Assembly (NCBI GenBank): GCA_965216905.1
Contig: OZ244213.1
Coordinates: 1,210,735-1,274,734, forward strand
Length of the DNA: 64,000 nt
Reading direction: 5' to 3'
From: Acidimicrobiia bacterium
GTDB lineage: Bacteria; Actinomycetota; Acidimicrobiia; Spongiisociales; ZC4RG35
Positions 7,979 through 25,423 of this stretch are shown here, piece by piece. The notes beneath the pieces were generated by a model. It saw nothing but the letters and a program-made list of their open reading frames with translations, was not told the DNA's origin and did not search any database. Positions within the stretch are counted from its first letter, which is position 1; every line of letters begins with the position of its first letter. The position numbers were made by a program, and so were the translations under genes.

Positions 7979-8010
7979 ACGAAGGTCAAGTCTCCTGGTT
8001 GCGGGACGCG

Positions 8011-8457
8011 TTACAGGTCGAGTCGATCCCGGTACTCCGGGCAGATGATCTCGACTCCCGCCCCGAGGATCACACCCCCCAGCCGCAGCTCGTCCGTGGT
8101 CACGACCTGCATCGGGTCGCGGTCGGAGACCGCTCCCACGTAGGCGGTCATGACCTCCTCCACGGTGAGCCCCTGGCCGAGCAGGTCACAGAACAGCACT
8201 GCCGTGCCGATGACCCCTTCCGGGTCTTCCAGCGCCACCCCTTCCTGCCCCGTTCCCCGAGTGGCATCGTCGACGGCGGCCAGGAAACTGGCCAGGAGCG
8301 GGATGTCGGCGGGCGCCATCACCTCGGGGACCGAAGACGTCGTCGAGTCGTGCACCTCCGTCGCCTCGGTCGGGGGCGGCACCAAGGTGCGGACCGGCGA
8401 TACCGAGGCGCAGGCGGCCAGCAAGAACATCAGGACCAGTGGGAGCCCTCCACGCAC
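8011..8457 (-). CDS. Putative lipoprotein.
   Basis: Signal peptide with a lipobox (LLAACAS), 148 aa, and two conserved-looking Cys (LFCDLL, ICPEY). Function unknown. Confidence 0.55.
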   Translation of the reverse strand: MRGGLPLVLMFLLAACASVSPVRTLVPPPTEATEVHDSTTSSVPEVMAPADIPLLASFLAAVDDATRGTGQEGVALEDPEGVIGTAVLFCDLLGQGLTVEEVMTAYVGAVSDRDPMQVVTTDELRLGGVILGAGVEIICPEYRDRLDL

Positions 8458-8518
8458 CCGGACAGGGTATCGCCGGCCACACCGATTGCACCTGTTCGGC
8501 CTGCAAGAATCTCCGGGC

Positions 8519-9814
8519 GTGATACCTCGCTACACCCTGCCCGACATGGCCGCGATCTGGTCGGACCAGCACCGCCTCGAGCTTTGGCAACGAGTCGAAG
8601 GGCTCGCCCTGGAAGGGTGGGAGGCGCTGAACATGGTGCCGGCCGGGGTCGGCCGGGCGGTCCTCGACGCCACCACTCCGACACCAGCGCAGGTCCGGGC
8701 CAGGGAAGAGGTCACCAACCACGACCTGGCTGCATTCGTCGACGTGCTCGCCGACGCAGTCCCGCACGGCTCCGAGTGGGTCCACTTCGGTCTCACCTCC
8801 TCCGATGTGCTCGACACGGCCGGCGGCGTCATGCTGGTGGAGGCGGCCGATCTCCTCCTCTCCGACGTGCGCCACCTGTTCGACGCAGTGAAGTCCAGGG
8901 CCCTCCAACACCGGGGAACGGCCATGATCGGCCGGACCCATGGAATCTGGGCAGAACCGACCAGCTTCGGTCTGAAGCTGGCCACCTGGGCATTCGAAGC
9001 GGCGAGAGGTCACGCCCGGCTCGCCGCCGCCCGGCAGCGAGTCGCGGTCGGAAAGATCAGCGGCGCCGTGGGGACCTACGCCCACTGTCCGCCGTCGATC
9101 GAGCGGCACGTGTGCACCGCGCTCGGCCTGGAACCGGAGCCGGCCTCCACTCAAATCGTCCAACGCGACCGACACGCCGAGTTCCTCGCGGTGCTGGCCC
9201 TCATCGGAGCCTCGGTCGAGCGATTCGCAACCGAGATCCGCCATCTGCAGCGGAGCGAGGTGGGCGAGGCGCGCGAGGCGTTCCGTCCGGGGCAGAAGGG
9301 CTCGTCGGCCATGCCCCACAAACGGAACCCCATCGTCTCCGAGCGCATGACCGGCATGGCCCGGCTCCTGCGCGGGTATGCCGTCACCGGACTCGAGAAC
9401 GTGGCGTTGTGGCACGAACGTGACATCAGCCATTCATCGGCGGAGCGGGTGGTCCTCCCCGACGCCTGTCTCACCCTCCACTACATGCTGGTCACCTTCA
9501 CTCGACTGGTGGAGCACCTGGTGGTCGATGCCGACCGCATGGCCGAGAACCTCACCGCCACCAACGGCCTCATCGCCTCCCAGGCCGTCCTGCTGGAGCT
9601 GGTCGGGGATGGCATGAGCCGTGACGACGCCTACCGGGTCGTCCAGCGCAACGCGTTGCGCTCCTGGGACGAGGGCAGCCCGCTCCTCGAGCTGCTCGAC
9701 GCCGACCCGGAAGTCTCACTCTCTCGCGAAGCCCTGTCCGATCTGTTGGCTCCGGCTCGGTTCCTCCGGGAGACCGGAGTGGTCTTCCAGAGACTGGCGG
9801 AACTGGAGATCTGA
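8519..9814 (+). CDS. purB: Adenylosuccinate lyase.
   Basis: The N-terminus [16 protein letters not shown], typical of PurB, with a GTG start. Fumarate-lyase signature [11 protein letters not shown]. Confidence 0.93.
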
Positions 9815-9817
9815 ACG

Positions 9818-10216
9818 ATGAGCGGAAGTCCGGACATCGACCCCACCCGGCTGGGCGAACTCCTCGAAGCAGACCGGTACGCCCGGCATCTGGGTATCCG
9901 CCTCGTGGACGATGCGAGCGTCACCGTCGAGATGACCATCACCAAAATCCACCTGAACTTCCTCGGAGGCCTGCACGGCGGTGCCTTGTTCTCGCTGGCC
10001 GACTGCGCACTCTCGCTGGCTTCGAACCACGACTCGACGGCGGTCGCCATCGACACCCACCTCGCCCTCACCGGCCAGGCCGAGGTGGGCGAGACGATCT
10101 CGGCCCGGGCGGAGGAGATTCACCGCGGCAGACGCACCGGGACGTACCGCATCACCGTTCGTCGCCAGGACGAGCGCGTGATCGGCATCTTCACCGGAAC
10201 CGTCCTTCTCGTGTGA
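9818..10216 (+). CDS. PaaI-family (hotdog fold) thioesterase.
   Basis: 132 aa. HGGALFSLAD motif of 4HBT/PaaI thioesterases. Starts 4 nt after the purB stop. Confidence 0.8.
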   Translation: MSGSPDIDPTRLGELLEADRYARHLGIRLVDDASVTVEMTITKIHLNFLGGLHGGALFSLADCALSLASNHDSTAVAIDTHLALTGQAEVGETISARAEEIHRGRRTGTYRITVRRQDERVIGIFTGTVLLV

Positions 10217-10273
10217 TGCGTCGGGGTCCGGCCGTCACGGCGGCACCGGTGGCGGCGCTACGCTGCCGTCTCG

Positions 10274-11149
10274 GTGGTGGCACTGGCACACGTCGCTTCG
10301 GGAAAGGTGCGGGAGATCTACGAGGTCGACGCCGACCACCTGTTGTTGGTCGCCACCGACCGGGTCTCCGCCTATGACTCGATCCTCGAGCCGCCGATCC
10401 CCGACAAAGGCCGCGTCCTGACCGGGATCGCCGCGTTCTGGTTCTCGGTCATCGACACCCCCCACCATCTGGTCGGGCTCGACGTGTCGACCGTGTCCGA
10501 CGATCCCGACCTCCGGGGCAGGTCGATGCTCGTTCGACGCGCCGACATGCTCCCGATCGAATGCGTCGTGCGCGGATACCTCGCCGGATCTGCGTGGCGT
10601 GAGTACGCCGCCGGCGGCGGTCCCGCCACCGAGCACCTCTCTCCCGGCCTCGACCGCTTCCAAGCGCTCGCCGAGCCGATCTTCACACCCGCCACCAAGG
10701 CCTCGTCGGGACACGACCAGAACGTGACCACCGCCCAGGCAGCATCGCTGGTCGGCGCCGACCTCATCGAAGAGCTCCGCAGGCGATCGATCGAGATCTA
10801 CCTCCGGTTGGCCGAGCACGCCCGGTCCCGTGGGTTGGTGCTGGCCGACACCAAGCTCGAGTTCGGCATGGTGGACGGTGAGCTCGTGCTGGCGGACGAG
10901 GTCGGGACTCCCGACTCGTCGAGATATTGGCGGTCGGAGCCGGTTCCCGGAGGTGAGCCGCCGGCCGGCCTCGACAAACAGTACGTCCGCGACTGGTTGG
11001 ACGCGGCCGGCTGGAACCACGATCCCCCGCCGCCCCGCCTCGACGACGACGTGGTTGCCGGGCTCAGACGTCGCTACGTCGAGGCGTTCGAGCGCCTCAC
11101 CGACACTCCGTTTCCCGCCTATCTGGAGGACCCGAACCGATGGACGTGA
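10274..11149 (+). CDS. purC: Phosphoribosylaminoimidazole-succinocarboxamide (SAICAR) synthase.
   Basis: GKVREIYEVD...LLLVATDRVSAYD is the classic PurC N-terminus. 291 aa. Confidence 0.93.
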   Translation: MVALAHVASGKVREIYEVDADHLLLVATDRVSAYDSILEPPIPDKGRVLTGIAAFWFSVIDTPHHLVGLDVSTVSDDPDLRGRSMLVRRADMLPIECVVRGYLAGSAWREYAAGGGPATEHLSPGLDRFQALAEPIFTPATKASSGHDQNVTTAQAASLVGADLIEELRRRSIEIYLRLAEHARSRGLVLADTKLEFGMVDGELVLADEVGTPDSSRYWRSEPVPGGEPPAGLDKQYVRDWLDAAGWNHDPPPPRLDDDVVAGLRRRYVEAFERLTDTPFPAYLEDPNRWT

Positions 11150-11379
11150 CCGTACACATCACCCGCCGGCCGGAGATCGCCGACCCCCACGGGTCGACGG
11201 TCCGGCGGGCGCTGCAGACCCTGGGACACGAGGGCGTTCGTTCGGTCCGTCTCGACCGGACGTTCCACCTCGAGGTCGATGGCGACGATCGCGACGACGT
11301 CCGGCGACGCGTCGTGGACATGTGCGAACGGCTGCTGGCCAATCCGGTGCTGGAGGACTTCGAAGTGGTGGTCGAATGA
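11140..11379 (+). CDS. purS: Phosphoribosylformylglycinamidine synthase subunit PurS.
   Basis: 79 aa. VTVHITRRPEIADPHGSTVRRAL is typical of PurS. Overlaps the purC stop. Confidence 0.9.
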   Translation: MDVTVHITRRPEIADPHGSTVRRALQTLGHEGVRSVRLDRTFHLEVDGDDRDDVRRRVVDMCERLLANPVLEDFEVVVE

Positions 11380-12035
11380 CGCGGGTGGCGGTGGCGGTGT
11401 TCCCCGGCTCGAACTGTGAGCACGACGTCGCCCATGCGCTCCGCCTGGCCGGCGCCGACCCCGAGTTGGTCTGGCATCGAGACGATGACCTGGCGGGCGC
11501 CGACGCGGTGGTCCTCCCCGGGGGCTTCGCCCACGGCGATGCACTCCGCACCGGTGCGATCGCCCGCTTCTCCCCCATCATGGAGCCGATCGTCGCCATG
11601 GCCGAGACGGGCCGGCCGGTGTTGGGAATCTGCAATGGATTTCAAATCCTGTGCGAGGCCGGGCTGCTGCCGGGTGCACTGATCGCCAATCGGGACCTCG
11701 CCTTCCTCTGTCGGTGGGTGGAGGTCGAGATCGTCGAGACCGACACCGTCCTCACTTCCGGGTGTTCGGTCGGAGACCGACTGCGCATCCCGCTCAACTC
11801 CTACGAGGGCAACCACGTGGACCCGGCGGGCGAGGCGAGAGTGGTCGTCCGATACACGGAGGATCCCAACGGCTCGACCGATCGGGCGGCCGCCATCGCC
11901 AACACCGAGGGCAACGTGGTCGGGATCATGCCCCATCCCGAGCGGGCGGTGGAGCACGTCCTCGGTTCGGTCGACGGCTTGCGCCTGCTCGAAGGTTTTG
12001 TGACGGCATCGGCCAAGGACGCAGCCGGTGTCTGA
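11376..12035 (+). CDS. purQ: Phosphoribosylformylglycinamidine synthase glutamine amidotransferase subunit.
   Basis: [14 protein letters not shown]...GICNGFQIL...HPE is the class I GATase triad context. The ATG overlaps the purS stop. Confidence 0.93.
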
Positions 12036-14274
12036 TCTGCAGATGGCGCCGGAAGAGGACGCCTACACGCCGACCATCGACGATGGAGCCGAGACGGTCT
12101 ACCGACAGTTGGGCATGACCGACGACGAGTACCGATCCGTCCTGGAGATCCTCGGCCGTGAACCACGACCGGCAGAACTGGCGATGTACTCGGTCATGTG
12201 GTCGGAGCATTGCTCGTACAAATCCTCGCGGGCACATCTCGGCCGATTCCCCAGCGAGGCGCCCTGGGTGGTGGTCGGTCCCGGCGAAAACGCCGGTGTG
12301 GTGGACCTCGGCGACGGCTGGCTGGCCGCGCTCCGGATCGAGAGTCACAACCATCCGAGCTTCGTCGAACCGTACGAAGGTGCAGCCACCGGGGTCGGAG
12401 GCATCATCCGGGACGTCTTCACCATGGGCGCCCGACCGATCGCGCTGTGGGACCAGATCAGGTTTGGGCCACTCGCCGACGCCAAGAACCGGTACCTGTT
12501 CTCTGGAGTGGTCTCGGGAATCGCCGGTTATGGCAACGCGGTGGGTGTTCCCACCGTCGGTGGCGAGACGGCCTTTGCCGCGTCGTACGCCGGCAACCCG
12601 CTCGTCAACGTCATGTGCCTCGGGCTGATGCGGCGCGAGCAACTGGTTCTCGGGACCGCCGGATCGCCCGGCAACCGGGCGATCCTGCTGGGAGCAGCCA
12701 CCGGCCGGGACGGTATCGGGGGTGCCTCGGTGCTGGCCTCGGCCTCCTTCGACGATGCGGCGGTCGCCAAGCGTCCCTCCGTCCAGGTCGGCAATCCGTT
12801 CGAGGAGAAGAAGCTGATCGAGGCCTGCCTGGAGCTCTATGAACGGTCTCTGGTTGCCGGTGTCCAGGACTTGGGTGCCGCCGGCCTCTCCTGTGCCACG
12901 AGCGAGCCGGCCGCCCGGGCGGGGGTGGGGATGGAGGTGGATCTGGACCGCGTCCATGTGCGCGAGACCGGAATGACCGCACCCGAACTCTTGATGTCCG
13001 AGTCCCAGGAGCGGATGATGGCCTTCGTCGAGCCGCACCTCGTCGATGAAGTGCTGGAGGTCGCCCGGCGATGGGAGATCGACGCATCGGTCGTGGGCAC
13101 GGTGACCGAAGGGACGTCCCTGCGCGTCCACCACCAGGGTGAGCTGGTCGCCGAACTCCCGGCGGCCTCACTCACCGAGGACGCACCCCGCCTCGACCGA
13201 CCTCTGGGTGAGCCGGCCTGGATGGAAGACCTGTGGTCGAACACGCTCACGTTCGTGGCACCACCCGACGTGGCGACCACCCTGCTGAACCTGCTCGACG
13301 ACCCTTCGATCGCTTCACCCGCCTGGGCCTACGAGCAGTACGACCACATGCTCTTCCTGAACACCATCGTCGGCCCGGGGAACGATTCGACGCTGCTCCG
13401 CATCAAAGGCACCGACAAGGCGATGGCCGTCTCCACCGACGGCAACGGACCCGTCTGCCTCCTCGATCCATGGCGGGGGGCGGCCCGGTTGGTGTACGAG
13501 GCCGCGCTGAACGTCGCTCTGGTCGGAGCGCGTCCGCTGGCGGTCGTCGACAACCTCAATTTCGGCAATCCGGAGAAGCCGGCCGTCATGTGGCAGTTCC
13601 AGCAGTCGGTGGACGGCATCGCCGACGCGTGCCGGATGCTGGACATTCCGGTGGTCGGCGGAAATGTGAGCTTCTACAACGAGACCGACGGCCATGACAT
13701 CTACCCGACTCCGATCGTCGGGCTCTTGGGTTTGGCCGATCCGGCGCCCGCCGACCCTCCGCGCCTCGGCGGTGCCGCCGAAGGAATGGAGTTGTGGCGA
13801 TTCGGCCCGGACTGGGCGACCAACCTGGCGGGTTCGGCCTTCGAGGAGATGGCGTTCGGGCATCTGGGAGGCCGTCCGTCGGCCCCTGACCCGACCATCG
13901 CCAAGGCGGCGATCGCCACCGCGATGACCCTGGCAACCGAGGGCCTGGCTCCGGCGGTGCACGACATCTCCGACGGTGGCCTGGCCGTGGCGGTCGCAGA
14001 GATGGCGATCGCCTCCGGGGTCGGGGTGGCTGTCGAGTACGCCGACTGGCGGAGCCTGTTTTGTGAAGATCCCCATCGCTTCATCGCCGCGGTCCGGCCG
14101 TCCGACGCCCAGCGGGTGCTCGAGATCTCCCTCGCCGAGGGTCTACCGGCGGCCCGAATCGGTACATTCGGTGGGCCGGAGATCACCTTCGCACGAGGGG
14201 CTCGGAAGGCAACCGTCGACCTGGCGACCGCCGCCACCACCTATCGCCAGGCGATCCCTCGCCGGATGAGCTGA
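12028..14274 (+). CDS. purL: Phosphoribosylformylglycinamidine synthase subunit PurL (FGAM synthase II).
   Basis: 748 aa. AIR-synthase-related duplicated domains ([20 protein letters not shown]). Overlaps the purQ stop. Confidence 0.93.
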
Positions 14275-14406
14275 AGCGTCGCCCCCTGCCTGGCACGATG
14301 CCGCCCTGGCACGATTCGGCCCCGCCATACTTCGACCCTGGCCCAAATGGCCCTGTCACGAGTCGCCCTGTCACAAATCGGCGGGCGGTGGTGTTCAAGA
14401 GGTGCA

Positions 14407-14925
14407 ATGGACAGACATCCGACCGACACGAGCGAGTCGCCCGACCTGGCCACGGTGATCGTCGCCTCACAACATCGGCTCGTCCCGCTCATCGCCAGAA
14501 TCGTCGACGACGATGCGGAGGACGTGGTGCAGGAGGCTCTCGTCCGGCTCGCCGACCACGAGGTGTCGCAGCGTCCGGCCGTCGAGATCTCCGCGTGGCT
14601 GCGTCGCGTGAGCATCAACCTGGCTTTCAACCGGCGAAGAGACGTCGCCCGATGGCGCGACCGATCGAGGCGGGGCGGTGCGGGCGTCGGAGCAGACGTC
14701 GAGGACCCGGCGGAGGCATCGATCCGCACCGAGGAGCGTGAGCAGGTCCGTCAGACGCTGGACGCCCTCGGCCCGGTCCAGCGGGCGATCTTGCTTCTCC
14801 GATACTCGGGGTACAGCTACGCCGAGATCGCCGCGACTCTGGAGCGTCCCGTCTCGTCCATCGGAACCACCCTGGCCCGCGCCGAGCGGGCCTTCCGCCT
14901 GGCCTACGAGGAGATGTACCCGTGA
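14407..14925 (+). CDS. ECF (sigma-70 family, group 4) RNA polymerase sigma factor.
   Basis: Region 2 (DAEDVVQEALVRL) and region 4 HTH (ILLLRYSGYSYAEIAATLERPVSSIGTTLARAERAF). Start set at the internal ATG and is uncertain; the ORF is open from 14347. Confidence 0.82.
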   Translation: MDRHPTDTSESPDLATVIVASQHRLVPLIARIVDDDAEDVVQEALVRLADHEVSQRPAVEISAWLRRVSINLAFNRRRDVARWRDRSRRGGAGVGADVEDPAEASIRTEEREQVRQTLDALGPVQRAILLLRYSGYSYAEIAATLERPVSSIGTTLARAERAFRLAYEEMYP

Positions 14926-15956
14926 CCCACTGCCCACCCATCGGAACCTGGCGAGCGTGGCTCGACGAGGAGACATCCATCGTCGGGCCGGACGAGCACC
15001 TGGCTGCCTGTCGAGGGTGTGCCGAGACGGTCGCGGACCTCCGCGCCGACGCGGCGTTCACCGCGGGTCGCATGGCCCGGCTGGGGGAGACTCGGACCCT
15101 TCCTCCGGCGACGGTGCATCCGCTTCCCTCCCGGAGGGCGCTTCGCGGGCACCGATCGACCTGGCTGAAGTCGCTGGTTGCGGCGGCGGCCGCGTTGGTG
15201 CTGGTGTTCACTCCGTTCGGTCAGGATGCCGCCGAGGCGTTCCTCGCAGCCTTCCGAGTCGAACGTTTCGATCTGGTTCGGGCGACCGCGCTGGAGGCCT
15301 TCCAGACGGCCGAGACCCTGGCCGCGCTCGGATCCATCGACGACGGGGCGGCCGTGCCCATCCCTTCCACGGCTTCGATCGAGGAGGCTTCGGCTCAGAC
15401 CGGACTCGACGTATCCGATCTCGCCGGCCTGAGCGACGGAGCGGTACTCGTGGTTCCCGAGTCGTCGGTGACCTGGACGCTCGACGGTGAGCGGGTGGCC
15501 GCTCACCTGGCAGAACAGGGCTCATCGATACCGGTCCCCTCCGAGCTCGACGGGACCGTCGTGACTATTCGTCGAGCGCCCGCCGTGGTCGCCGCGGTCG
15601 GAGCGATCGATGATCCCGAACTGATCGTCGCCGTTTCCGGTCCCGTGACCGCCAACACCATGGACGGGATGGGTCTGGGAGACCTTCGGGCGTTCTTGTT
15701 GGAACTGCCCGGTATTCCCGAGGGAGTCACCAATCAGCTGGGTGCGATCGAGGACTGGCAGACCACGCTCCCGATTCCGGTTCCCGTCGACCACGGCTCG
15801 GCTTCGATCGAACGCATGGGCGGAGTCGAGGTGGTGACCTTCGAGGTCGACGCCCTCGGCACCGGGTTGATGTGGCTGGACGGCGAGCAGATCCAAGCGG
15901 TGATGGCGCCGAGCGAGGCTCGTGCCCGGGAAGCGTTCGAGCAACTCTCCGGGTGA
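14922..15956 (+). CDS. Membrane-anchored anti-sigma factor with a ZAS-type zinc-finger motif.
   Basis: N-terminal HLAACRGCAE (Hx3Cx2C), one TM helix (LVAAAAALVLVF) and a roughly 240-aa extracytoplasmic domain. The GTG overlaps the sigma-factor stop (GTGA). Confidence 0.7.
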   Translation: MTHCPPIGTWRAWLDEETSIVGPDEHLAACRGCAETVADLRADAAFTAGRMARLGETRTLPPATVHPLPSRRALRGHRSTWLKSLVAAAAALVLVFTPFGQDAAEAFLAAFRVERFDLVRATALEAFQTAETLAALGSIDDGAAVPIPSTASIEEASAQTGLDVSDLAGLSDGAVLVVPESSVTWTLDGERVAAHLAEQGSSIPVPSELDGTVVTIRRAPAVVAAVGAIDDPELIVAVSGPVTANTMDGMGLGDLRAFLLELPGIPEGVTNQLGAIEDWQTTLPIPVPVDHGSASIERMGGVEVVTFEVDALGTGLMWLDGEQIQAVMAPSEARAREAFEQLSG

Positions 15957-16873
15957 CGACACCGACGGAGACACCCGTGGCGGCGCTCGAGGGCGTCACC
16001 AAGCGGTACGGCGGTGTCACTGCCCTCGACCGGGTCACGTTCCGGCTCTGGCCCGGGGAGGTCTTCGGTCTGCTCGGGCCGAACGGCGCCGGGAAGAGCA
16101 CCGCCGTCAAGATCCTGCTGGGTCTGGTGCACGCCACCGAAGGGACGGCCACCCTCGATGGCCGTCCCTCACGCGACCATCGAGCTCGTCGGTCGGTGGG
16201 GTATCTGCCCGAGCTGTTCCGGTTTCAGCCATGGATGACCGGACGTCAGCTCCTCCGCTTCCACTCCGAACTGGCCGGCATCGACATCGACGAGGAAGCC
16301 ATCCAGTCAACCCTGCACGAAGTGGGTATGGCCGATGGTGCCGACCGCACCATCCGGACATATTCGAAGGGGATGTCCCAGCGGATCGGTCTGGCTCAGG
16401 CGATGCTCGGCAACCCACGCCTCGTGATCCTCGACGAGCCCACCTCGGCGCTGGACCCCGTCGGCCGCCGCGAGGTGAGGACGGTCATCGCCCGCCTCCG
16501 TCGGCGGGGCGTGGCGGTGATCCTGAACAGTCATCTCCTCGGAGAGGTCGAACAGGTCTGCGACCGGGTCACGATCCTCGACCGGGGCCGCGTCCGGTTC
16601 GCCGGGAGCCTCGGTGATCTCGTGGGTCGCAATCAAACGGTCGAGGTCACCGTCGACACCGTCGACGGTCGCCTGATCCGTCACTTGCAGACGATCGGCG
16701 AAGTGGCGGTGGTGGATGACACCCGGGTGATCGTGAGTGTGCACGACGCGTCGGAGGCCGACGCGGTGGCCCGGGCGGTCCACGACGCCGGGCGGCGCCT
16801 GCTGGCGCTGGTTCCCTCCCAGCCGTCGCTCGAGGACGTCTTCGTCTCGATGGTCGAAGGGGGCGACCGGTGA
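15953..16873 (+). CDS. ABC transporter ATP-binding protein.
   Basis: Walker A GPNGAGKST, Q-loop, signature YSKGMSQR, Walker B LVILDEPTSALD and an H-loop. The GTG overlaps the anti-sigma stop. Confidence 0.9.
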   Translation: MTTPTETPVAALEGVTKRYGGVTALDRVTFRLWPGEVFGLLGPNGAGKSTAVKILLGLVHATEGTATLDGRPSRDHRARRSVGYLPELFRFQPWMTGRQLLRFHSELAGIDIDEEAIQSTLHEVGMADGADRTIRTYSKGMSQRIGLAQAMLGNPRLVILDEPTSALDPVGRREVRTVIARLRRRGVAVILNSHLLGEVEQVCDRVTILDRGRVRFAGSLGDLVGRNQTVEVTVDTVDGRLIRHLQTIGEVAVVDDTRVIVSVHDASEADAVARAVHDAGRRLLALVPSQPSLEDVFVSMVEGGDR

Positions 16874-17694
16874 TCATCTTGCGGGCAACACTGCGTGAGA
16901 TGCTGGGGCGGCGAGTCCTGCTGTGGGGTGGCATCCTCAGCGTTGCGTTCATCGGTCTCTTCACGCTCGGTCTGACGATGATCAGCCGCGAGCTGGGGAC
17001 CGGGGCGGACGAGGTGGAGATCGTTGGAACGATGCTGGCGCTCCTCGCCCTCTACGTCGTGTCCTTCCTCGGCGCCTTCCTCGGTCTGGCATTGTCGGCC
17101 GGCGCGGTCGCCTCCGAGATCGATCAGGCGCTCATCCACGCCGTGGCGGCCAGGCCCATCACTCGACGGAGCTGGCTGCTTCAGCGGTGGACGGCGCTGG
17201 CTGCGGTGGTCGGCGTCTACGTGGCGGTGATGTCGACGGTGATGATGCTGCTCGCCACATCGTTCCTGTCGTACCAGCCGCTCGCCCCGATCGCCACGGT
17301 CGCCCTGATGGCGCTGGAAGCGGTGGTGATGACGACGATCGGTTTGCTCTTCTCGACCCGTGTCTCCGCAGTGGCGGCAGGCGTGATCACATTCTCGGCG
17401 TTCGGGTTGGCCTGGCTCGCGGGGATCGTCGAGTTCATCGGTTCCCTTCTGGGGAACTCGGCATTGGTGAACACGGGGATCATCACCAGCCTGGTGGTGC
17501 CGACCGACGAGTTGTGGAGGGGGGCTTCCTTCTACGCGGCGAACGCCAGCTTCGTGGACACCGTGATGGACCAGGTGGAGCTCCCCTTCGCGTCCGGTAC
17601 GCCACCGGCCGGGCCATTCCTCCTCTGGTCCGTGGCGTACATCCTGGCGATGCTGTGGCTGGCCACCCGCTGGTTCGAGCGGCGCGACCTCTGA
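16870..17694 (+). CDS. ABC-2 type transporter permease.
   Basis: 274 aa with about six TM helices. The start overlaps the ATPase stop (ATGA). Confidence 0.75.
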   Translation: MIILRATLREMLGRRVLLWGGILSVAFIGLFTLGLTMISRELGTGADEVEIVGTMLALLALYVVSFLGAFLGLALSAGAVASEIDQALIHAVAARPITRRSWLLQRWTALAAVVGVYVAVMSTVMMLLATSFLSYQPLAPIATVALMALEAVVMTTIGLLFSTRVSAVAAGVITFSAFGLAWLAGIVEFIGSLLGNSALVNTGIITSLVVPTDELWRGASFYAANASFVDTVMDQVELPFASGTPPAGPFLLWSVAYILAMLWLATRWFERRDL

Positions 17695-17744
17695 GCTTCG
17701 GCCGGGCGGATGCGAGGGCTACCTGACCGATCAAGCCCTAAGGT

Positions 17745-18881
17745 GTGGCGCCGATGCCACAAACCATCGGAATCCTCACGGCGGGCGGTGACTCGCCCGG
17801 CCTCAATGCCGCGATCCGCGCCATCGGCAAGGCGGCGGAACGCCGCCACGGCATGCACGTTCTGGGGTTCCGAGACGGCTTCCAAGGAGTCATCGCCAAC
17901 CGCGTCGTGCGCCTGGACGGCGATTCGCTGTCCGGCATCCTGACCAAAGGCGGAACGATCCTCGGGACGAGCCGACTGAAAGTCCACAAGGTTGACATCG
18001 GAGACGGCGAGATCGTGGACATGCGGCCCATGATCCAACGCGTGGTCGAGGGTCACGACCTCACCGCCCTCGTCTGTCTCGGAGGTGGCGGAACGCAGAA
18101 GAACGCCCTCCGGCTCCACAAGTCGGGCATCCCGGTCATCACCCTCCCGAAGACGATCGACAACGACGTCTGGGGCACCGATACGACGTTCGGGTTCGAC
18201 ACGGCCCTGTCCATCGCCTCGGAGGCGATCGATCGCCTGCACTCGACCGCCCACTCCCACCATCGGATCATGGTGGTGGAGATCATGGGCCACAACACGG
18301 GCTGGTTGAGCCTGGGGTCCGGTCTCGCCGGAGGAGCGGACGTCATCCTGATCCCCGAGATCCCGTACTCGGTCGAGTCGGTCGCCGAGTCGGTCCTCCA
18401 GCGAAAGGCGGCCGGATCCAACTTCTCGATCGTGGCGGTGGCCGAGGGTGCCAGCGCCGCCGACATCAGAATCCGGCATGACGAGATCATCGCCGACCTC
18501 GAGGCGGCCGACGACGAGGACGACGACACGAGCGAGCTGCGTCGCGAGTTGCATGAACTTCATGCCTCAGAGCGTCGTTCGACCGAAACCCTGGCGGACC
18601 GACTCGAGGAGGCCACGGGCCTGGCGTCGCGGGTCACGATCCTCGGCCACGTGCAGCGAGGAGGAACCCCGTCGCCCGCCGACCGCGTCCTCGCCACCCA
18701 CCTGGGAACCGCAGCGGCCGATGTGATCGCCGAAGGGACGACTGGGGTGATGATCGCGATGCGGAACGGCCAAGCCGTCCCGGTTCCGCTGACGGACGTG
18801 GCAGGACGCCGCAAGGCGGTACCGCTCGACCATCCATGGATCGATGCTGCGCGACGGCTGGGGGTCTGCCTGGGCGACTGA
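17745..18881 (+). CDS. pfk: 6-phosphofructokinase (ATP- or PPi-dependent).
   Basis: [25 protein letters not shown] and MGHNTGWL motifs of the PFK-A family. About 378 aa with an acidic insertion. Confidence 0.9.
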
Positions 18882-19128
18882 CGGCAATCCGGCGGTCGAG
18901 CGGCCTCCGGAGGCAAGCGGCAACGGTGGTCATCCGGATAAGGAGCCTCGGCGATCGGCGAAGCGGGCGCACGTGACGTTCTGTGCGACGTGACTCCACC
19001 CGGTGCGGCAGAGCCTCATCACCGGAGGCGGGGCCCCCTGTCAACCCCGCCTGCGGTTCAACCCCCTGGGTGCCCCCACCCTGGCCGACGATCTCGCCGT
19101 GCGGTATCGATCAAGGTACGAACCCATG

Positions 19129-19169
19129 CCGATCGGGTCAATGGGTCGAGCGGGCCATTGACCGATCGG
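19129..19169 (+). promoter_or_regulatory. Near-perfect 15-16 nt inverted repeat (hairpin) in the MFS transporter leader.
   Basis: CCGATCGGGTCAATGG-N10-CCATTGACCGATCGG, about 60 nt upstream of the start at 19231. It overlaps an 11-codon uORF (ATGCCGATCGGGTCAATGGGTCGAGCGGGCCATTGA). Confidence 0.4.
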
Positions 19170-19230
19170 CCTCCGCGGGCCGGTGGCCGGGACGCTCCGG
19201 CCGCGCCGTCGACGTTCGTCGTAACCTGCC

Positions 19231-20700
19231 GTGGTGGACGACCACATCCTGTCTCCCCCATACCGGCGCGCCTCGATCGCCATCTACGTGGCGGTGGCCC
19301 TCGCAGCGTTCGAGGGAACGGCGGTGGCCGCCGTGCTCCCGCAAGTGGCGGGAGACCTGGGGCGGTTGGACCTGCTCCCCTGGGTCGTGACCGGATATCT
19401 GTTCGCCGGCGGTGTTGCGATCGTCGTGGCCGGACCCGCCATCGACACGCTGGGAACTCGAACGGTGTTTCGATGGTCGGTGCTGACCTTCACCGTCGCC
19501 GGGACCGCCGCCGGACTCGTCGAATCGATGCCAGCGATGGTGGCGGTCCGGCTCCTCCATGGATTCGGCGGCGGTGCGCTGGGTGCCGCGTCGGTCACCG
19601 CGGTTGGGCTCGTCTTCCCCCTCAAGATGGTGGGCAGGGCATTCGCGGCGAACTCCACCGTCTGGGGTGTGATGGGAGTGGCCGCACCGGGAATCGCCGC
19701 CTTCATGGTGACCACGTTGTCGTGGCGATGGGTTTTCCTCGTGAACCTCCCACTGGGCATCCTGGCGTTGGTGGCGGGTTGGTCGATCCTCCCCGGTGCC
19801 GCATCCGGCGGTCCCGGCCAACGCCGGTTCGACCTCGTCGGGACCGCGTTGGTGGCATGTTTCACATTCGCGCTGCTGGTCGCCATCGACTCGCTCGACG
19901 CCTCCTCGGCGTGGTGGATCCTGGTCGCCGCCACGACCGCCGGCGCATACGCCATCCATGCCCACCGGGCGTCTGAGCCCGTGCTCCGCCCCGGCCTCCT
20001 CATCGCACAGCCGTACGGTTCGATCGGCGGCTCGATCGCGTTGATGCTGGCGGCAGCGATCGCCATCAACACGTATGTGACCCTGTACGTGTCGGTCGGC
20101 CGCGGTGCGTCGCCGAACCTGACCGCTTGGTCGGTCTTCTTCTTCGTCATCGGCTGGACCGCCGGAGCCAACCTCTCCAGCCGGCTCCTCGACCGGCTTG
20201 CCGAGACGAGCGTCATGCTGACCGGCTCACTCACGACGCTGACGGGCCTGATCCTGGTGACGGTGGCATCGGCTGCCACGTGGCCCCTTTCGATGGTGCT
20301 CGCCGGCCTCTTCCTGGCCGGGTTCGGGGTGGGGAACGCCACCAACGCAGGGATCACGTTGCTCCGGTCCGTGACACCCGACCAGACCATGGGGCGAGCG
20401 AACTCGGCTCACCAGTTCCTCCGCAATCTGGGATTCACCCTCGGCTCAGCCATGGGGGGCGCCGTCCTGCTGCTGACCGTTTCCCGAAGGCTCGGAAGCA
20501 TCGCGGCGGTCGAATCGCTCCTGGCCGGTGAGGCGAATGCGATGCCCGAGGTTGCCGGGGCCGTCGCCCGGGGCTACACCGCCATCGCGGCGACATCGGT
20601 GGTGGTGACGGTCGCCGCCGTCGTGCCGATGCTCATGCTCCGGAGACACCTCGCCGAGGCGCGAAGACAGAAGCGTGCCACCGGAACGTCCCCGGCGTAG
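19231..20700 (+). CDS. MFS transporter (likely drug:H+ antiporter type, 14 TMS).
   Basis: 489 aa. MFS signature around GTRTVFRWSVL and multiple TM helices throughout. Confidence 0.85.
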   Translation: MVDDHILSPPYRRASIAIYVAVALAAFEGTAVAAVLPQVAGDLGRLDLLPWVVTGYLFAGGVAIVVAGPAIDTLGTRTVFRWSVLTFTVAGTAAGLVESMPAMVAVRLLHGFGGGALGAASVTAVGLVFPLKMVGRAFAANSTVWGVMGVAAPGIAAFMVTTLSWRWVFLVNLPLGILALVAGWSILPGAASGGPGQRRFDLVGTALVACFTFALLVAIDSLDASSAWWILVAATTAGAYAIHAHRASEPVLRPGLLIAQPYGSIGGSIALMLAAAIAINTYVTLYVSVGRGASPNLTAWSVFFFVIGWTAGANLSSRLLDRLAETSVMLTGSLTTLTGLILVTVASAATWPLSMVLAGLFLAGFGVGNATNAGITLLRSVTPDQTMGRANSAHQFLRNLGFTLGSAMGGAVLLLTVSRRLGSIAAVESLLAGEANAMPEVAGAVARGYTAIAATSVVVTVAAVVPMLMLRRHLAEARRQKRATGTSPA

Positions 20701-20703
20701 CGA

Positions 20704-21993
20704 TCACCGAGCCAGGCGAAGCCGCCACATGGCGACGGCGGCGATCACTCCGGTGGCGATCGCGGCCGGTACGAACGGAGGCTCGGACCGGCGCTCCGCA
20801 AACGGGACCGCAGTGGGGTCTTGCTCGAAGGCCTCTGATGGATCCCCGTTGGCGTTGATGTCGGACACGTCACCGCCGTCGGTCAGATCGGTGGTCTCCG
20901 CTCCGTCGAGCGCCGAACGAGCGGTCACCATGAACTGCACCTCCACCCCTTCGGTCGCCGGCCGGTCGGCCGGGAGTTCGATCGCCATCTCGATCGCCCG
21001 GCTCGTGCCCACGTCGATGGCTTCGTCGGCCGGGAGGCCACCGGTGACCGTGCCGTCGGCCGCCACCCGCATGTCCTCGGAAGGGGAGAAGTCCAGCCGG
21101 AACTGGCCGGCATCCGGTACGGAATCGACGGGAACCCCGAGTTGGCCCAACGAACCCGCGAACGTGACCGCTTCGAGGGGAACGCCGCCGAGGTTCTCGA
21201 TCACGAGCCGAAGCCTCAAGTGCGAGTCCGGCGACGCTTCGTCTGCGAAATGGATCGCCAGCGCGCCCCCGACCTGCGGGCCGCAGATCGAGATGTCTCC
21301 GATGCCGCTCAGCCGGCCGTTCGGCCCGCCGCCATCGACATGGGAGACGACCAGCCGCGTGACCGGTCCGGCGACCGCCAGCTCGACGTTGGAGAGGTCT
21401 GCGTCGTTGTCGCTCGTCGCCACGCCCTGAAAGGTGCCATCGGCGTCGGCCGATGCTCTGGCGGCGACGCCGACCTGAGCCGTGACCGATTCGGTGATGT
21501 CGTCGACCCCGTCGAAGGCTCGCACCCGAACGACGTCTCGGAAGGCCTCGGAGGCGGCGTCGACATCGAGGAGTTCGAACTCGAGTCCCCGCACGGGATG
21601 GTCGAACGTCAACTCGAGACCGGTGCTCTTGCCTTCGTCCGCTCCCGGATGGAAGAACGCTACATATCCGGCGTCTCCGCTGAGCGTCTCGTCCGTCACC
21701 CAGATTCGGCTGTTCCCCTGGGCCCCGACCTTCGGCTCGACCGTGACGCCGCCGATGGCGAATGGCTCGACCGCCCGATCGGCGGACTGCGCGGCCCAGT
21801 CGTAGGAGACGGGGTTTCCACATTGGAACTCGGCCGGTGCAGCCGACCCCACGACCGGCATCCATACGACAACTCCACCCAGGGCCATCGCGGCAAGGAC
21901 CCGGACGGCTCGACCGGCATGAAACGGCGCGATGAGATTCACACCGTTTCTATCGGCCGCAAGCAGTCGAAGTGAAGGGGGCGGCCGGCTCAT
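20704..21993 (-). CDS. Secreted, cell-surface-anchored Asp-rich protein with a C-terminal TM helix plus basic tail.
   Basis: Signal-peptide-like N-terminus (RAVRVLAAMALGGVVVWMPVVGSAAPA), about 400 aa of acidic beta-rich sequence, then the C-terminus PFVPAAIATGVIAAVAMWRLRLAR. Composition is protein-like, unlike the overlapping plus-strand ORFs. The start (ATG at 21993) is uncertain. Confidence 0.55.
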   Translation of the reverse strand: MSRPPPSLRLLAADRNGVNLIAPFHAGRAVRVLAAMALGGVVVWMPVVGSAAPAEFQCGNPVSYDWAAQSADRAVEPFAIGGVTVEPKVGAQGNSRIWVTDETLSGDAGYVAFFHPGADEGKSTGLELTFDHPVRGLEFELLDVDAASEAFRDVVRVRAFDGVDDITESVTAQVGVAARASADADGTFQGVATSDNDADLSNVELAVAGPVTRLVVSHVDGGGPNGRLSGIGDISICGPQVGGALAIHFADEASPDSHLRLRLVIENLGGVPLEAVTFAGSLGQLGVPVDSVPDAGQFRLDFSPSEDMRVAADGTVTGGLPADEAIDVGTSRAIEMAIELPADRPATEGVEVQFMVTARSALDGAETTDLTDGGDVSDINANGDPSEAFEQDPTAVPFAERRSEPPFVPAAIATGVIAAVAMWRLRLAR

Positions 21994-22026
21994 CCCCGCC
22001 GCCGTGGGGCGGTACAGTCGACGGCC

Positions 22027-22821
22027 ATGGACGGCCTCCCATCTCTCGACGCACTCCACCTCGAGGTGGACGAGAACGGGATCGCCACGATGACCCTCGA
22101 CAATCCTCCGGTGAACACCGTCGGAATCACCGGACATCGCGAACTGACCTATGTCTGGCCGGCGCTCGACCAACTGCCCGAGGTCCGGTGCGTGCTCATC
22201 CGGGCCAATGGCCGTGCCTTCTCGGCAGGCGGTGACTTCGAGCTGCTCGAACACATCCGCCGCGATCCTCGGAACGCCGCCGCGGTGATGACCGAAGCCG
22301 GCGATCTGGTCCGGAACATGATCGACTTCTCCAAACCGGTCGTTTCGGCGATCAACGGCGTGGCGGTCGGCGCCGGACTGGCCGCTGCGCTCCTCGCCGA
22401 CGTGCCGGTGGCGGGCCGCTCCGCCCGCCTGCTCGACGGACACGTCAGTCTCGGTGTGGCCGCCGGGGATCATGCCGTGGTGCTGTGGCCGTTGCTGATC
22501 GGCATGGCCAAGGCCAAGTACCACCTGCTGACCAACGAACCGATCGACGGCGTGGAGGCCGAGCGGCTGGGGCTGGTGTCGCTGGTCGTCGACGATGACG
22601 ACCTTCAAGCCACGGCTCGAAGAGTTGCCGAACGGCTGGCGGCCGGGAGTCGCTCGGCGATCTCTTGGACCAAGAAGACCCTCAACCACTGGCTGCGAGC
22701 CGCCTACCCCGCGTTCGACGCCTCTCTCGCCCATGAGTTCCTCGGGTTTCTCTCGCCGGACGTCGAAGAGGGGATCGCCGCCGTCCGCGAGAAGCGGGCT
22801 CCCCGATTCGAGGAGGGCTGA
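22027..22821 (+). CDS. Enoyl-CoA hydratase/isomerase (crotonase) family protein.
   Basis: 264 aa. The crotonase fold motif AINGVAVGAGLAAALLADV and an oxyanion-hole region. Confidence 0.85.
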   Translation: MDGLPSLDALHLEVDENGIATMTLDNPPVNTVGITGHRELTYVWPALDQLPEVRCVLIRANGRAFSAGGDFELLEHIRRDPRNAAAVMTEAGDLVRNMIDFSKPVVSAINGVAVGAGLAAALLADVPVAGRSARLLDGHVSLGVAAGDHAVVLWPLLIGMAKAKYHLLTNEPIDGVEAERLGLVSLVVDDDDLQATARRVAERLAAGSRSAISWTKKTLNHWLRAAYPAFDASLAHEFLGFLSPDVEEGIAAVREKRAPRFEEG

Positions 22822-22862
22822 CCGTTCCGAAGCCGGTCGACGGTCGACCTAGACTCGACCCG

Positions 22863-24278
22863 GTGACCGAGGGGAAACCGGGCGAGGCATGTGGAGTGTT
22901 CGGGATCTATGCGCCCGGACGCCACGTGGCGACGAACATCTTCTACGGCCTCTTCGCCCTCCAGCATCGCGGGCAGGAGTCGGCGGGGATCGCCACGTCC
23001 GACGGACAAACGCTGACCGTGTTCAAGGACCTCGGCCTCGTCTCTCATGTGTTCGGCGAAGCGGATCTCGCCAGCCTGGAGGGACACGTCGGGGTCGGAC
23101 ACACCCGCTACTCGACGACCGGCTCGTCCGGCCGGTGGGAAAACTCCCAACCGGTGCACCGCCAGATCGGCAACACGTCGATCGCGCTCAGCCACAACGG
23201 GAATCTCACCAACACCCGCCGGCTGGCCGAAGATCTCGGCGTGCGGGGGGCCAGCACCGACTCCGACCTGATGCTCGAGATGATCGCCCGGCAGGTCGAC
23301 GACGAGCGATCCGACGGGAGGGGCCTCGAGCATGCGCTCGCCGCCTCCCTCCCTTCCTTCGAAGGAGCCTTCTCGCTGGCGGTCATGGACCAGGGACGTC
23401 TGATCGGAGTCCGCGATCCGCACGGCTTCCGCCCGCTGTGCCTGGGTCGGATCGACGACACCGCTTGGGTCCTCAGCTCCGAGACCTCGGCGCTCGATTT
23501 GCTGGGCGCCCGGTTCATTCGAGAGGTCGAACCGGGCGAGATGGTGATCATCGATGCCAACGGAGTCCGCAGCCGCCACCCCTTTGCGCGCACCGACCCG
23601 CGGCTCTGCGTGTTCGAGTTCGTGTACTTCGCCCGCCCCGACAGCCACCTCTACGGACGGAACGTGTTCGCCGCTCGTCAGGAGATGGGACGGAAGCTGG
23701 CGGGCGAGCATCCCATCTCGGCCGACGTCGTGGTGCCGGTACCCGAGTCGGGGATCCCGGCCGCCCAGGGCTTCAGCGAACGCTCGCTCATCCCGTATGC
23801 AGACGGTCTCGTCAAGAACCGCTACATCGGACGCACCTTCATCGAACCGACCCAGCTCCTGCGCGATCGAGGGATCCGCCTCAAGCTCAATCCGATCGAA
23901 TCGACGTTCTCGGGAAGACGGGTGGTGCTCGTCGACGACTCGATCGTCCGAGGTTCCACGACCCGCCAGCTCGTACAGATGGTTCGCGACGCCGGGGCCA
24001 GGGAGATCCACCTTCGGGTGTCGTCCCCCCCATACCGCTGGCCGTGCTTCTACGGCATGGACACATCGGATCAGAATCGGCTGCTGGCCGCCCGGATGAG
24101 CGTCGACGAGATTCGGGCGTACCTCGGCGTCGAGACGCTCGGCTATCTCTCGTTGCCCGCGCTGATGGAGGCGAGCGCCGGTTCGACCGCGGGGTTCTGC
24201 ACGGCGTGCCTGTCCGGGGACTATCCCACCGACGTGACCCAGGCGGAGGGCAAGTTCGTCCTGGAACCCGCCACGTGA
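22863..24278 (+). CDS. purF: Amidophosphoribosyltransferase.
   Basis: A propeptide followed by CGVFGIY (the N-terminal nucleophile Cys), then a PRTase motif (VVLVDDSIVRGST) and the C-terminal Cys cluster typical of the 4Fe-4S type. Confidence 0.93.
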   Translation: MTEGKPGEACGVFGIYAPGRHVATNIFYGLFALQHRGQESAGIATSDGQTLTVFKDLGLVSHVFGEADLASLEGHVGVGHTRYSTTGSSGRWENSQPVHRQIGNTSIALSHNGNLTNTRRLAEDLGVRGASTDSDLMLEMIARQVDDERSDGRGLEHALAASLPSFEGAFSLAVMDQGRLIGVRDPHGFRPLCLGRIDDTAWVLSSETSALDLLGARFIREVEPGEMVIIDANGVRSRHPFARTDPRLCVFEFVYFARPDSHLYGRNVFAARQEMGRKLAGEHPISADVVVPVPESGIPAAQGFSERSLIPYADGLVKNRYIGRTFIEPTQLLRDRGIRLKLNPIESTFSGRRVVLVDDSIVRGSTTRQLVQMVRDAGAREIHLRVSSPPYRWPCFYGMDTSDQNRLLAARMSVDEIRAYLGVETLGYLSLPALMEASAGSTAGFCTACLSGDYPTDVTQAEGKFVLEPAT

Positions 24279-25276
24279 CGTCGTACGCCGACGCCGGCGT
24301 CGACCTGGCCGGCGCTGCCCGACACGTCGGTCGGATCGCAGCCAGCGTCACCGACACGTGGGGGCCATCAGTGGTGGGAGGGTTCGGCGGATTCGCAGCC
24401 GGTGTCGAACTGCCGGCCGGGTATCGCCGTCCGGTTCTGATGATGTCGACGGACGGGGTCGGGACCAAGATCGAGTTGGCCCGCGCCACCGGCAACTGGG
24501 AAGGCATTGGACAGGATCTCGTCGCCATGTGCGTCGACGATCTCGCCGCATCGGGTGCGCGGCCGATCGGATTCGTCGACTACATGGCGGTGGGACGTCT
24601 CGACGAGGTACGGGACGCGGCCATCGTGGCCTCCATCGCCTCGGCCTGTGCAGAGATCGGCGTGCCGCTGCTCGGAGGCGAGACCGCCGAGCACCCCGGC
24701 GTGATGGAGGCCGGCCAGGTCGACTTGGCAGGTGCGGCCGTCGGGATCGTCGAGCGAGGCGCCGAGATCACCGGCGCGGCGATATCGCCGGGCGACGTCG
24801 TGATCGGCCTCTCCAGCCCGAATCTCCGAAGCAACGGCTTCTCGCTCGTACGCAAGGTGTTCGAAGGCGCCGACCTCGACGACATGGTCGGCGACCGCAC
24901 CTTGGGAGCGACCTTGCTCGAACCGTCGGTGCTCTATGCGCCGGCGGTGCTGGCGGCGATCGAAGACGGCGACGTCCACGGCTGCGCCCACATCACCGGT
25001 GGGGGGATCGTCGAGAACCTGGCACGGATCCTTCCCGAGGACTGCGACGCCGTGATCGAATCCACCTCATGGACACCTCCCCCGGTGTTCGCACTCGTCG
25101 CCGAGCAGGGTGCGATCGATCGCAGTTCCATGTTCGGCACCTTCAACATGGGATTGGGCTTCTGCATCGTGGCCAACCCGGCATCCGTGGAACGGCTCCT
25201 CGAAATCGTCGCACGGCACCGGCCGTTCGTCGCCGGGCACATCCGTGCGGGCGAAGGCGATGTCGTCTTGACCTGA
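24275..25276 (+). CDS. purM: Phosphoribosylformylglycinamidine cyclo-ligase (AIR synthase).
   Basis: The N-terminus VTSYADAGVD with GGFGGF...MSTDGVGTK. The GTG overlaps the purF stop. Confidence 0.93.
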   Translation: MTSYADAGVDLAGAARHVGRIAASVTDTWGPSVVGGFGGFAAGVELPAGYRRPVLMMSTDGVGTKIELARATGNWEGIGQDLVAMCVDDLAASGARPIGFVDYMAVGRLDEVRDAAIVASIASACAEIGVPLLGGETAEHPGVMEAGQVDLAGAAVGIVERGAEITGAAISPGDVVIGLSSPNLRSNGFSLVRKVFEGADLDDMVGDRTLGATLLEPSVLYAPAVLAAIEDGDVHGCAHITGGGIVENLARILPEDCDAVIESTSWTPPPVFALVAEQGAIDRSSMFGTFNMGLGFCIVANPASVERLLEIVARHRPFVAGHIRAGEGDVVLT

Positions 25277-25423
25277 GTCGCTTCAGACGGCAAGCCGTGC
25301 CGTCCGATACGATGCAGGTGATGTTCGTCTTGTCGCCGCGGATGGATCGGAGCCACCTGTTCGCCGCTCCCTAGATCGGGGTCGATCGCCGTCTGTCCGT
25401 CCCCGACCAAGGAGAACCACACC

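Follow-up and report, generated by a model that had tools for sequence, protein, structure and literature searches.

The window analysed here, a 64,000-nucleotide stretch of the genome of an Acidimicrobiia bacterium (positions 1,210,735 to 1,274,734 of contig OZ244213.1, GenBank assembly GCA_965216905.1), was found to carry four genes predicted to encode an extracytoplasmic function (ECF) sigma factor, an anti-sigma factor and the two subunits of an ATP-binding cassette (ABC) transporter. In window positions, the sigma gene lies at 14407-14925 (172 aa), the anti-sigma gene at 14922-15956 (344 aa), the ATPase gene at 15953-16873 (306 aa) and the gene for an ABC-2 (type V) permease at 16870-17694 (274 aa). 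These forward-strand open reading frames (ORFs) occupy the space from purL (12028-14274) to pfk (17745-18881), both recognised by domain search, and start and stop codons overlap at all three junctions (14922-14925, 15953-15956 and 16870-16873). The initial annotation of this DNA had described a four-gene operon in this place, beginning at 14275, the base right after the purL stop codon, and the genes with their overlapping junctions are present in the sequence, as is the placement between purL and pfk. The 4-nt overlaps were also there as described, but the GTGA/ATGA sequences given for them were not, as all three are GTGA. By themselves such overlaps are unremarkable because four-base overlaps are common in high-GC operons. 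What goes beyond chance, on comparison with related loci, is that both the cassette and its promoter are conserved between lineages.

The first gene encodes a protein with sigma-2 and sigma-4 regions that scored above the cut-offs of the Pfam models Sigma70_r2 (28.9 bits, cut-off 24) and Sigma70_r4_2 (46 bits, cut-off 25.7) and of the NCBIfam model TIGR02937 sigma70-ECF (55.3 bits, cut-off 42.9). These scores and its size of 172 aa identify it as an ECF (group IV) sigma-70 factor, while none of the NCBIfam equivalog or subfamily models reached its cut-off. The closest solved chains were those of generic ECF sigma factors, namely 6in7_B (deposited as 'RNA polymerase sigma-H factor'), RpoE, and SigE, SigL and SigH of Mycobacterium tuberculosis.

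The second gene is predicted to encode a class I anti-sigma factor of the zinc-binding anti-sigma (ZAS) type. Its anti-sigma domain (14922-15089, residues 1-56) includes C4, H26, C30 and C33, the last three in a motif at 14997-15020, and is followed by a variable cytoplasmic linker, a single transmembrane helix at 15165-15230 (about residues 82-103) and an extracytoplasmic domain of mixed alpha/beta fold at 15231-15956 (residues 104-344, 241 aa). The hydropathy scan showed one hydrophobic segment, at about 79-103, and since it is flanked N-terminally by basic residues (consensus RWR), residues 104-344 are placed outside the membrane. The Hx3Cx2C motif, single membrane segment and outer part of about 240 aa reported initially were thus all found. 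In an alignment of 77 family members the motif reads C/H-x21-H-x3-C-x2-C, with H26, C30 and C33 invariant in 77/77 and with 61 Cys and 16 His at position 4, the ligand set known from classical ZAS proteins. The window protein itself had no Pfam or NCBIfam match, and zf-HC2, matched by 19 of the 77 relatives, was not reached at E 0.01. Its profile matched the anti-sigma domains of RsiW, DdvA and ChrR and that of chain 3hug_B, which we take to be RslA, among solved structures. With the four ligands present and the gene overlapping the sigma stop codon, the protein belongs to the ZAS proteins at the level of sequence, and binding of the sigma factor and of zinc is predicted.

A word-indexed search returned only 8 relatives of the anti-sigma factor. 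A profile search run exhaustively over 1.84 billion cluster representatives returned 2539 at E<=1e-3, of which 663 reached E<=1e-30, a score that requires the outer domain plus the short zinc domain, so the family comprises at least 663 clusters at 50% identity. Every named relative is called "hypothetical protein". Many of the proteins P0040-P0092 are about 290 aa long and seemingly devoid of the zinc domain, and 'outer-domain-only' members serving as a transporter accessory were considered. This candidate was rejected on the case of P0085, a gene-calling artefact whose full ORF (contig L017, 611-1753) has the zinc motif; P0092, another member of about 290 aa, lies 80 nt from a contig end. 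As the start codon of P0085 was miscalled, domain statistics based on metagenome gene calls under-count the anti-sigma domain.

In the alignments the outer domain is the best-conserved part of the anti-sigma family, with several near-invariant motifs: AAAxFLxxFR right after the membrane, LRxFLLxLPGLP and DWRxTLPIPVPxD. The initial annotation had assigned it to no family. This holds for the window protein, which gave no match to Pfam DUF4367 (PF14285) at E<=0.01 and is not counted as a member, but the domain is that of a large unannotated family in which 12 of the 77 relatives have a weak C-terminal match to DUF4367 (best E 3.9e-9). Two of these matches were inspected singly; both fell under the gathering score and covered only profile positions of about 60-110, in the last 50 or so residues. 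On these sequence matches the link to DUF4367 is best described as a remote and partial relationship, not as membership. An AlphaFold2 model built with the 77-sequence alignment had a mean pLDDT (predicted local distance difference test) of 85, with values >90 across the outer domain. Foldseek comparison of the model with the PDB gave no match at E<=1e-3; LolA came first at 0.012, with RseB further down. The best fold matches were envelope proteins that bind lipids or lipoproteins (LpqN, TP0453) and the sigma-E sensors RseB/MucB, each aligned over only about 90-110 residues at about 10% identity. By this model, the outer domain would have no close solved relative in the PDB and would resemble, at a distance, envelope proteins of which several bind lipids or lipoproteins or sense periplasmic stress. 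Just outside the membrane lies a conserved Ala-rich stretch, A103, A104 and A105 being Ala in 50, 66 and 38 of the 77 sequences. It is speculation that site-1 cleavage might take place here by a signal peptidase, as it does in RsiV.

One alternative is that the zinc-cysteine motif itself reads cytoplasmic thiol or redox stress, as that of RsrA does, and that the outer domain has no role beyond anchoring or stabilising the protein. The membrane-bound RslA of M. tuberculosis has been suggested to be redox-sensitive, and both the C/H-H-C-C ligands, invariant in 77/77, and the match of the N-terminal domain to zinc-type anti-sigma factors are as this explanation predicts. It is nevertheless improbable, because conservation within the family is highest in the outer domain, which is unexpected for a passive anchor, and because the zinc motif of RsiW is structural rather than sensory (PMC7406223). 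The motif occurs in about half of the membrane-bound class I anti-sigma factors (PMC7406223). Given the conservation of the outer domain and this literature on membrane-bound ZAS proteins (PMC7406223), a purely cytoplasmic redox role of the motif is possible but less likely.

The third gene encodes an ABC ATPase with a C-terminal domain of the DrrA type, predicted to be regulatory. It matched Pfam ABC_tran (PF00005) with 110.6 bits (cut-off 25, E 1.2e-31), and its translation shows the Walker A (GPNGAGKST), signature (YSKGMSQR) and Walker B (LVILDEPTSALD) motifs. The DrrA1-3_C model gave 23.6 bits, under its cut-off, and the NCBIfam drrA subfamily model 199 bits against a cut-off of 312 (E 8e-59), so that no specific subfamily was assigned. 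The closest solved chains were the nucleotide-binding domains of ABCA proteins, NosF (E 1.4e-56, the closest bacterial one) and Rv1218c. The permease, with about six hydrophobic segments and a NosY/COG1277-like sequence, scored 23.4 bits with Pfam ABC2_membrane_2 (PF12679), just under the cut-off of 27.2; nearly all of its homologues at 40-56% identity carry PF12679. In their source records these homologues are named 'Cu-processing system permease' or 'ABC-2 type transport system permease', and the NosY-like names are automatic transfers from COG1277/KEGG, not evidence of a function in copper processing. The transporter is predicted to be a NosFY/DrrA-like type V exporter, export being assumed because it belongs to the ABC-2 fold family and no binding-protein gene adjoins it. 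A role of the cassette in anti-phage defence was discarded, as the PADLOC matches were all of a generic ATPase kind.

The same four-gene order was found in every related locus with enough sequence, in Acidimicrobiia, Chloroflexota and metagenomes, always between unrelated flanks. Six loci from metagenome-assembled genomes of Acidimicrobiia/Actinomycetes (L001-L006) have the sigma, anti-sigma, ATPase and permease genes in this order; in L001 succinate dehydrogenase genes lie upstream and different ORFs downstream, in place of purL and pfk. The order is kept, again with other neighbours, in L007 and L008, whose permease is named as Chloroflexota by NCBI, in L009-L012 and L016, in the P0008 contig (31% identity) and in L014, where the anti-sigma identity has dropped to 24%. 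The short contigs L013, L015 and L017 are consistent with the cassette as far as their sequence reaches. The cassette thus spans at least two phyla, and its junctions in the related loci are mostly overlaps of 4-23 nt. In L001 (9014-10756) the ATPase and permease genes read as one fused ORF of 580 aa, and in L004 and L005 (about 8000-10800) the genes are split over several tblastn segments; both look like indel errors of assembly rather than biology.

This synteny bears on whether the genes are merely chance or loose neighbours, the sigma/anti-sigma pair controlling genes elsewhere and the transporter having a housekeeping role. ABC families are very common, four-base overlaps are frequent in high-GC genomes, and the search for other copies of the cassette promoter, described below, covered 64 kb of this genome, all of which leave some room for such an arrangement. 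However, the gene order persists even where anti-sigma identity is only 24%, and it spans at least two phyla with new flanks each time; on this comparison of loci a chance neighbourhood is strongly disfavoured and very improbable.

Alignment of the regions upstream of the sigma gene revealed one conserved element, TGT[C/A]A[C/G]-N18/19-GTT, with the GTT within CGGTGTT. It occurs at the same place in 9 distinct lineages and is present in every locus that includes the upstream region. In the window it corresponds to a predicted autoregulated ECF-type promoter on the forward strand at 14369-14395, with the -35 box TGTCAC at 14369-14374, a spacer of 18 nt, and GTT at 14393-14395 within the -10 region TGGTGTT (14389-14395). 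The spacing and the GTT resemble those of ECF -35/-10 pairs such as the GGAAT-N18-GTT type. In 242 kb comprising the window and the related loci, scanned on both strands, the strict motif was found exactly once per locus, on the coding strand just upstream of the sigma gene; the extended motif is unique within the window, and the loose motif appeared in 0.08% of shuffled 200-nt upstream regions. The loose N18 form was seen 3 times in the window against 0.25 expected, and there are loose matches elsewhere in it at 16015-16041, some 60 nt into the ATPase gene, and on the reverse strand at 58242-58216 and 9425-9398. These were examined as further promoters; all were without the conserved CGGTGTT and were treated as chance matches, the one at 16015-16041 probably so. 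The promoter therefore appears, from its distribution in these sequences, to be dedicated to the cassette. As the distance from the end of the GTT to the start codon is 11 nt in the window, L001-L006 and L009, the mRNA is suggested to be leaderless or nearly so.

The position of the promoter depends on the start of the sigma gene, for which ATG 14407 (172 aa) is most likely rather than 14347, because public annotation and the lengths of the homologues agree on it. The 172-aa protein has an exact-sequence match in public annotation, the 192-aa version has none there, and the N-termini of the homologues are of lengths that fit a start at 14407. The start at 14347 was rejected on these grounds; it would put the conserved promoter and two of the repeats described next inside the coding sequence.

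Within the 132-nt spacer between purL and the sigma gene lie four forward-strand direct repeats (14286-14382) of the 19-nt unit CGCCCTGkCACGAnTCGGC: R1 at 14286-14304, R2 at 14302-14320, R3 at 14349-14367 and R4 at 14364-14382, the last two being those just mentioned. The copies are 79-100% identical to the reference copy and are spaced by 16, 47 and 15 nt. R1 and R2 carry TGGCAC, and R3 and R4 carry TGTCAC, that of R3 being 15 nt upstream of that of R4. Repeats had been noticed initially at 14290-14380, and they are both real and more extensive than was then described. Their proposed role as an autoregulated promoter held in part: R4 coincides with the conserved -35 box, but R1-R3 are specific to this genome. 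R1-R3 (CCTGGCACGAT twice, then the second CCCTGTCAC; 14286-14367) have no counterpart in the lineage of L001-L006. They may be decoy or auxiliary sites for sigma region 4, an operator of another regulator, or scars of duplication; they would have arisen most simply by tandem duplication of the -35 region. R1-R3 were rejected as further promoters, none having GTT at N18/19 and all being absent from other lineages, and the TGGCACG of R1 and R2 was rejected as a sigma-54 promoter, because on inspection of the sequence the -12 element has its GC out of register. In L014 (262-281) an extra GTCAC lies 10 nt upstream of the -35 box TGTCAC (ggtcactgccTGTCAC), echoing R3 and R4 of the window, and duplicated -35-like elements may be a recurrent feature of some lineages.

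An internal promoter or terminator separating the sigma and anti-sigma genes from the ABC genes would speak against the operon, and nothing convincing of this kind was found. A consensus scan of 13800-18200 gave no sigma-70-type promoter, and an Rfam scan in and around the operon no RNA element at E<=0.1. There was no GC anomaly indicative of horizontal transfer, the locus having 66-70% GC throughout.

It is proposed that the four genes form an autoregulated ECF sigma/anti-sigma pair hard-wired to a type V (ABC-2) exporter, a self-contained envelope sense-and-export cassette, with a probability that we put at roughly 0.6. The self-contained module suggested by the initial annotation is upheld by the common gene order in all sufficiently long loci, the unrelated flanks and the conserved ECF-type promoter, and the best-supported reading is that the exporter of the cassette is the main, perhaps the only, output of the switch. 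At rest, the N-terminal zinc domain of the membrane-anchored anti-sigma factor would keep the sigma factor at the membrane. The 240-aa outer domain would sense some hydrophobic or lipid-like cue on the outer side of the membrane, upon which the anti-sigma factor would be destroyed, most likely by regulated proteolysis. The freed sigma factor would transcribe its own operon from the conserved promoter, and the induced exporter would remove or neutralise the compound, the pump presumably exporting its own inducer. New anti-sigma factor, made in step with the sigma factor through translational coupling, would then reset the switch. The description of the substrate as an 'envelope-active compound' is pure conjecture.

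Several points weigh against this proposal. Co-transcription and autoregulation are deduced from sequence alone, and the proteolytic step draws no support from this locus, site-1 and site-2 proteases not having been searched for in the window. The -10 region of the window reads TGGTGTT, whereas all other loci have CGGTGTT. The coding regions contain three weak terminator-like hairpins, where 1.1 +/- 1.0 would be expected. The anti-sigma and ABC genes are separated by gaps of 108-142 nt in the P0008 contig and L014, so that coupling is not universal; the 108-nt gap between the anti-sigma and ATPase genes of L014 contains a perfect 11-bp stem-loop at 2153-2182 (GGGGTAGAAGG-gaaacagt-CCTTCTACCCC) without a T-run, which could set a different ratio of regulator to pump expression in that lineage.

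The transporter might instead be part of the sensor, the outer domain docking on the permease or accepting extracted material, so that sigma activity would report the load of the transporter. The anti-sigma and ABC genes co-occur strictly in every sampled lineage, mostly with overlaps that favour matched production of subunits; NosY and NosF, the nearest counterparts of the permease and the ATPase, function together with a periplasmic partner; the modelled outer domain seems to resemble lipid or lipoprotein carriers; and the occurrence of the promoter motif only before the cassette in the 242 kb would fit a cassette that is its own sole target. Parallels for sensing by a transporter exist in BceAB, which reports to BceS, and in NosD, which sits on NosY. 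Co-occurrence is, however, equally expected if the exporter is a plain regulated output, and the two lineages with intergenic gaps depart from matched production. The co-occurrence, the NosFY-like parts and the carrier-like domain are compatible with a sensing transporter, none of them showing contact, and such a role is judged unlikely. A more specific and equally doubtful proposal is a flux-sensing ECF pathway, in which the fused RseB/LolA-like domain would take a lipidic substrate from the NosFY-like pump or read the pump cycle, release of the sigma factor measuring the load. Flux sensing has been described for two-component systems (BceS-BceAB), and to our knowledge not for ECF sigma factors.

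Among characterised systems, the closest analogue of the proposed sense-and-export cassette is sigY-yxlCDEFG (ECF31) of Bacillus subtilis, in which an ECF sigma gene is likewise followed by negative regulator(s) and a two-gene type V exporter in one autoregulated operon. YxlF2G2 appears among the type V exporters, with no known function (PMC11466899), and regulation of ECF31 by YxlC and YxlD is described in the ECF re-classification (PMC7826278). The cassette is not a member of this group: the SigY model NF007216 gave 42.2 bits against a cut-off of 194, and neither YxlC nor YxlD is encoded at +1/+2. Its anti-sigma factor is a 344-aa class I protein of the zinc type with a large outer domain, whereas that of sigY is the small YxlC; no YxlD or YxlE lies between the anti-sigma and ABC genes, the +2 gene being already the ATPase; and its hosts are Actinobacteria and Chloroflexi, that of sigY being a member of the Firmicutes. 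The possibility that the cassette belongs to an ECF group already characterised together with an ABC partner, which would have undone the claim of the initial annotation, was examined in this way, and the cassette differs from ECF31/SigY in each of these respects. The bioinformatic group ECF258 has an uncharacterised anti-sigma outer domain and genes that adjoin ABC transporters (PMC7826278). By that description, it differs in its DUF4179 outer domain and its occurrence in Firmicutes, the outer domain of the cassette being DUF4367-related and its hosts of another phylum. The main text of the re-classification (Casas-Pastor et al. 2021) ties ABC transporters only to ECF258 and ECF234 (PMC7826278); it is possible that the sigma factor of the cassette falls in an ECF group already listed there.

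In RseA-RseB and MucA-MucB (Escherichia coli sigma-E and Pseudomonas aeruginosa AlgU, respectively) the sensor is a separate periplasmic protein, whereas that of the cassette is fused to the anti-sigma factor; RseA, unlike the cassette protein, has no zinc motif, and its operon has no transporter. The similarity of fold between RseB/MucB and the outer domain extends over about 90-100 residues only, at about 9% identity. The partners of B. subtilis SigW and M. tuberculosis SigL, RsiW and RslA, share with the cassette anti-sigma factor the N-terminal Hx3Cx2C domain, a single transmembrane helix and an extracytoplasmic C-terminal part, and RsiW and chain 3hug_B were its best sequence-profile matches among solved structures. 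Their outer domains are unrelated to that of the cassette, and neither has a translationally coupled ABC transporter. The transporter recalls NosDFY and DrrAB/Rv1218c, its ATPase matching NosF and Rv1218c and its permease homologues having NosY-like names, yet inspection of the annotated neighbouring genes, both in the window and in the related contexts examined, showed no nosD, nosL or nosZ. The BceRS-BceAB module also combines a dedicated regulator with a dedicated ABC transporter that may co-sense. It relies, however, on two-component signalling and on a type VII permease of the FtsX fold whose outer domain is large, in contrast to the ECF pair and small ABC-2 permease of the cassette; with a 274-aa ABC-2 permease and no histidine kinase or response regulator gene, the cassette is not of the Bce type.

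The cassette lies within a purine biosynthesis gene cluster (8150-25400), with purB (8150-9814), purC (10274-11149), the end of purQ (12035) and purL on one side, and purF (22863-24278) and purM (AIRS domains at about 24.4-25.3 kb) on the other. In the roughly 8.6 kb from purL to purF lie the cassette, pfk, a major facilitator superfamily transporter gene (19231-20700) and a gene of 676 aa on the opposite strand (20704-22734). The 676-aa ORF has no Pfam match and shows a hydrophobic stretch followed by a basic C-terminal end (..AAIATGVIAAVAMWRLRLAR), possibly a predicted membrane anchor, and its N-terminal part may be spurious in such GC-rich DNA. Between the permease stop codon and pfk there are 50 nt (17695-17744) with no T-rich terminator and with an imperfect hairpin, AGGGCT..AGCCCT, at about 17714-17738. 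Read-through from the cassette into pfk may occur in this genome; in other lineages pfk is outside the conserved module.

No description of the cassette was found in literature searches combining DUF4367 with anti-sigma factors and ECF with ABC-2. It represents no new principle, as ECF/anti-sigma pairs with ABC exporters are already known from SigY and from the bioinformatic group ECF258, and it will not surprise a specialist; it is a widespread, uncharacterised form of the arrangement in which an ECF/anti-sigma pair has a dedicated ABC exporter. Its sigma/promoter pair (TGTCAC-N18-GTT) could serve as an orthogonal expression switch. With one promoter, one sigma factor, one sensor and one pump, the cassette is a compact and portable unit that is widespread in the poorly studied Acidimicrobiia and Chloroflexota. 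Since the promoter appears dedicated and the sensor family is uncharacterised, identification of the inducer would give a function to a large orphan family, and it would also put to the test the ABC transporter as an input of an ECF pathway.

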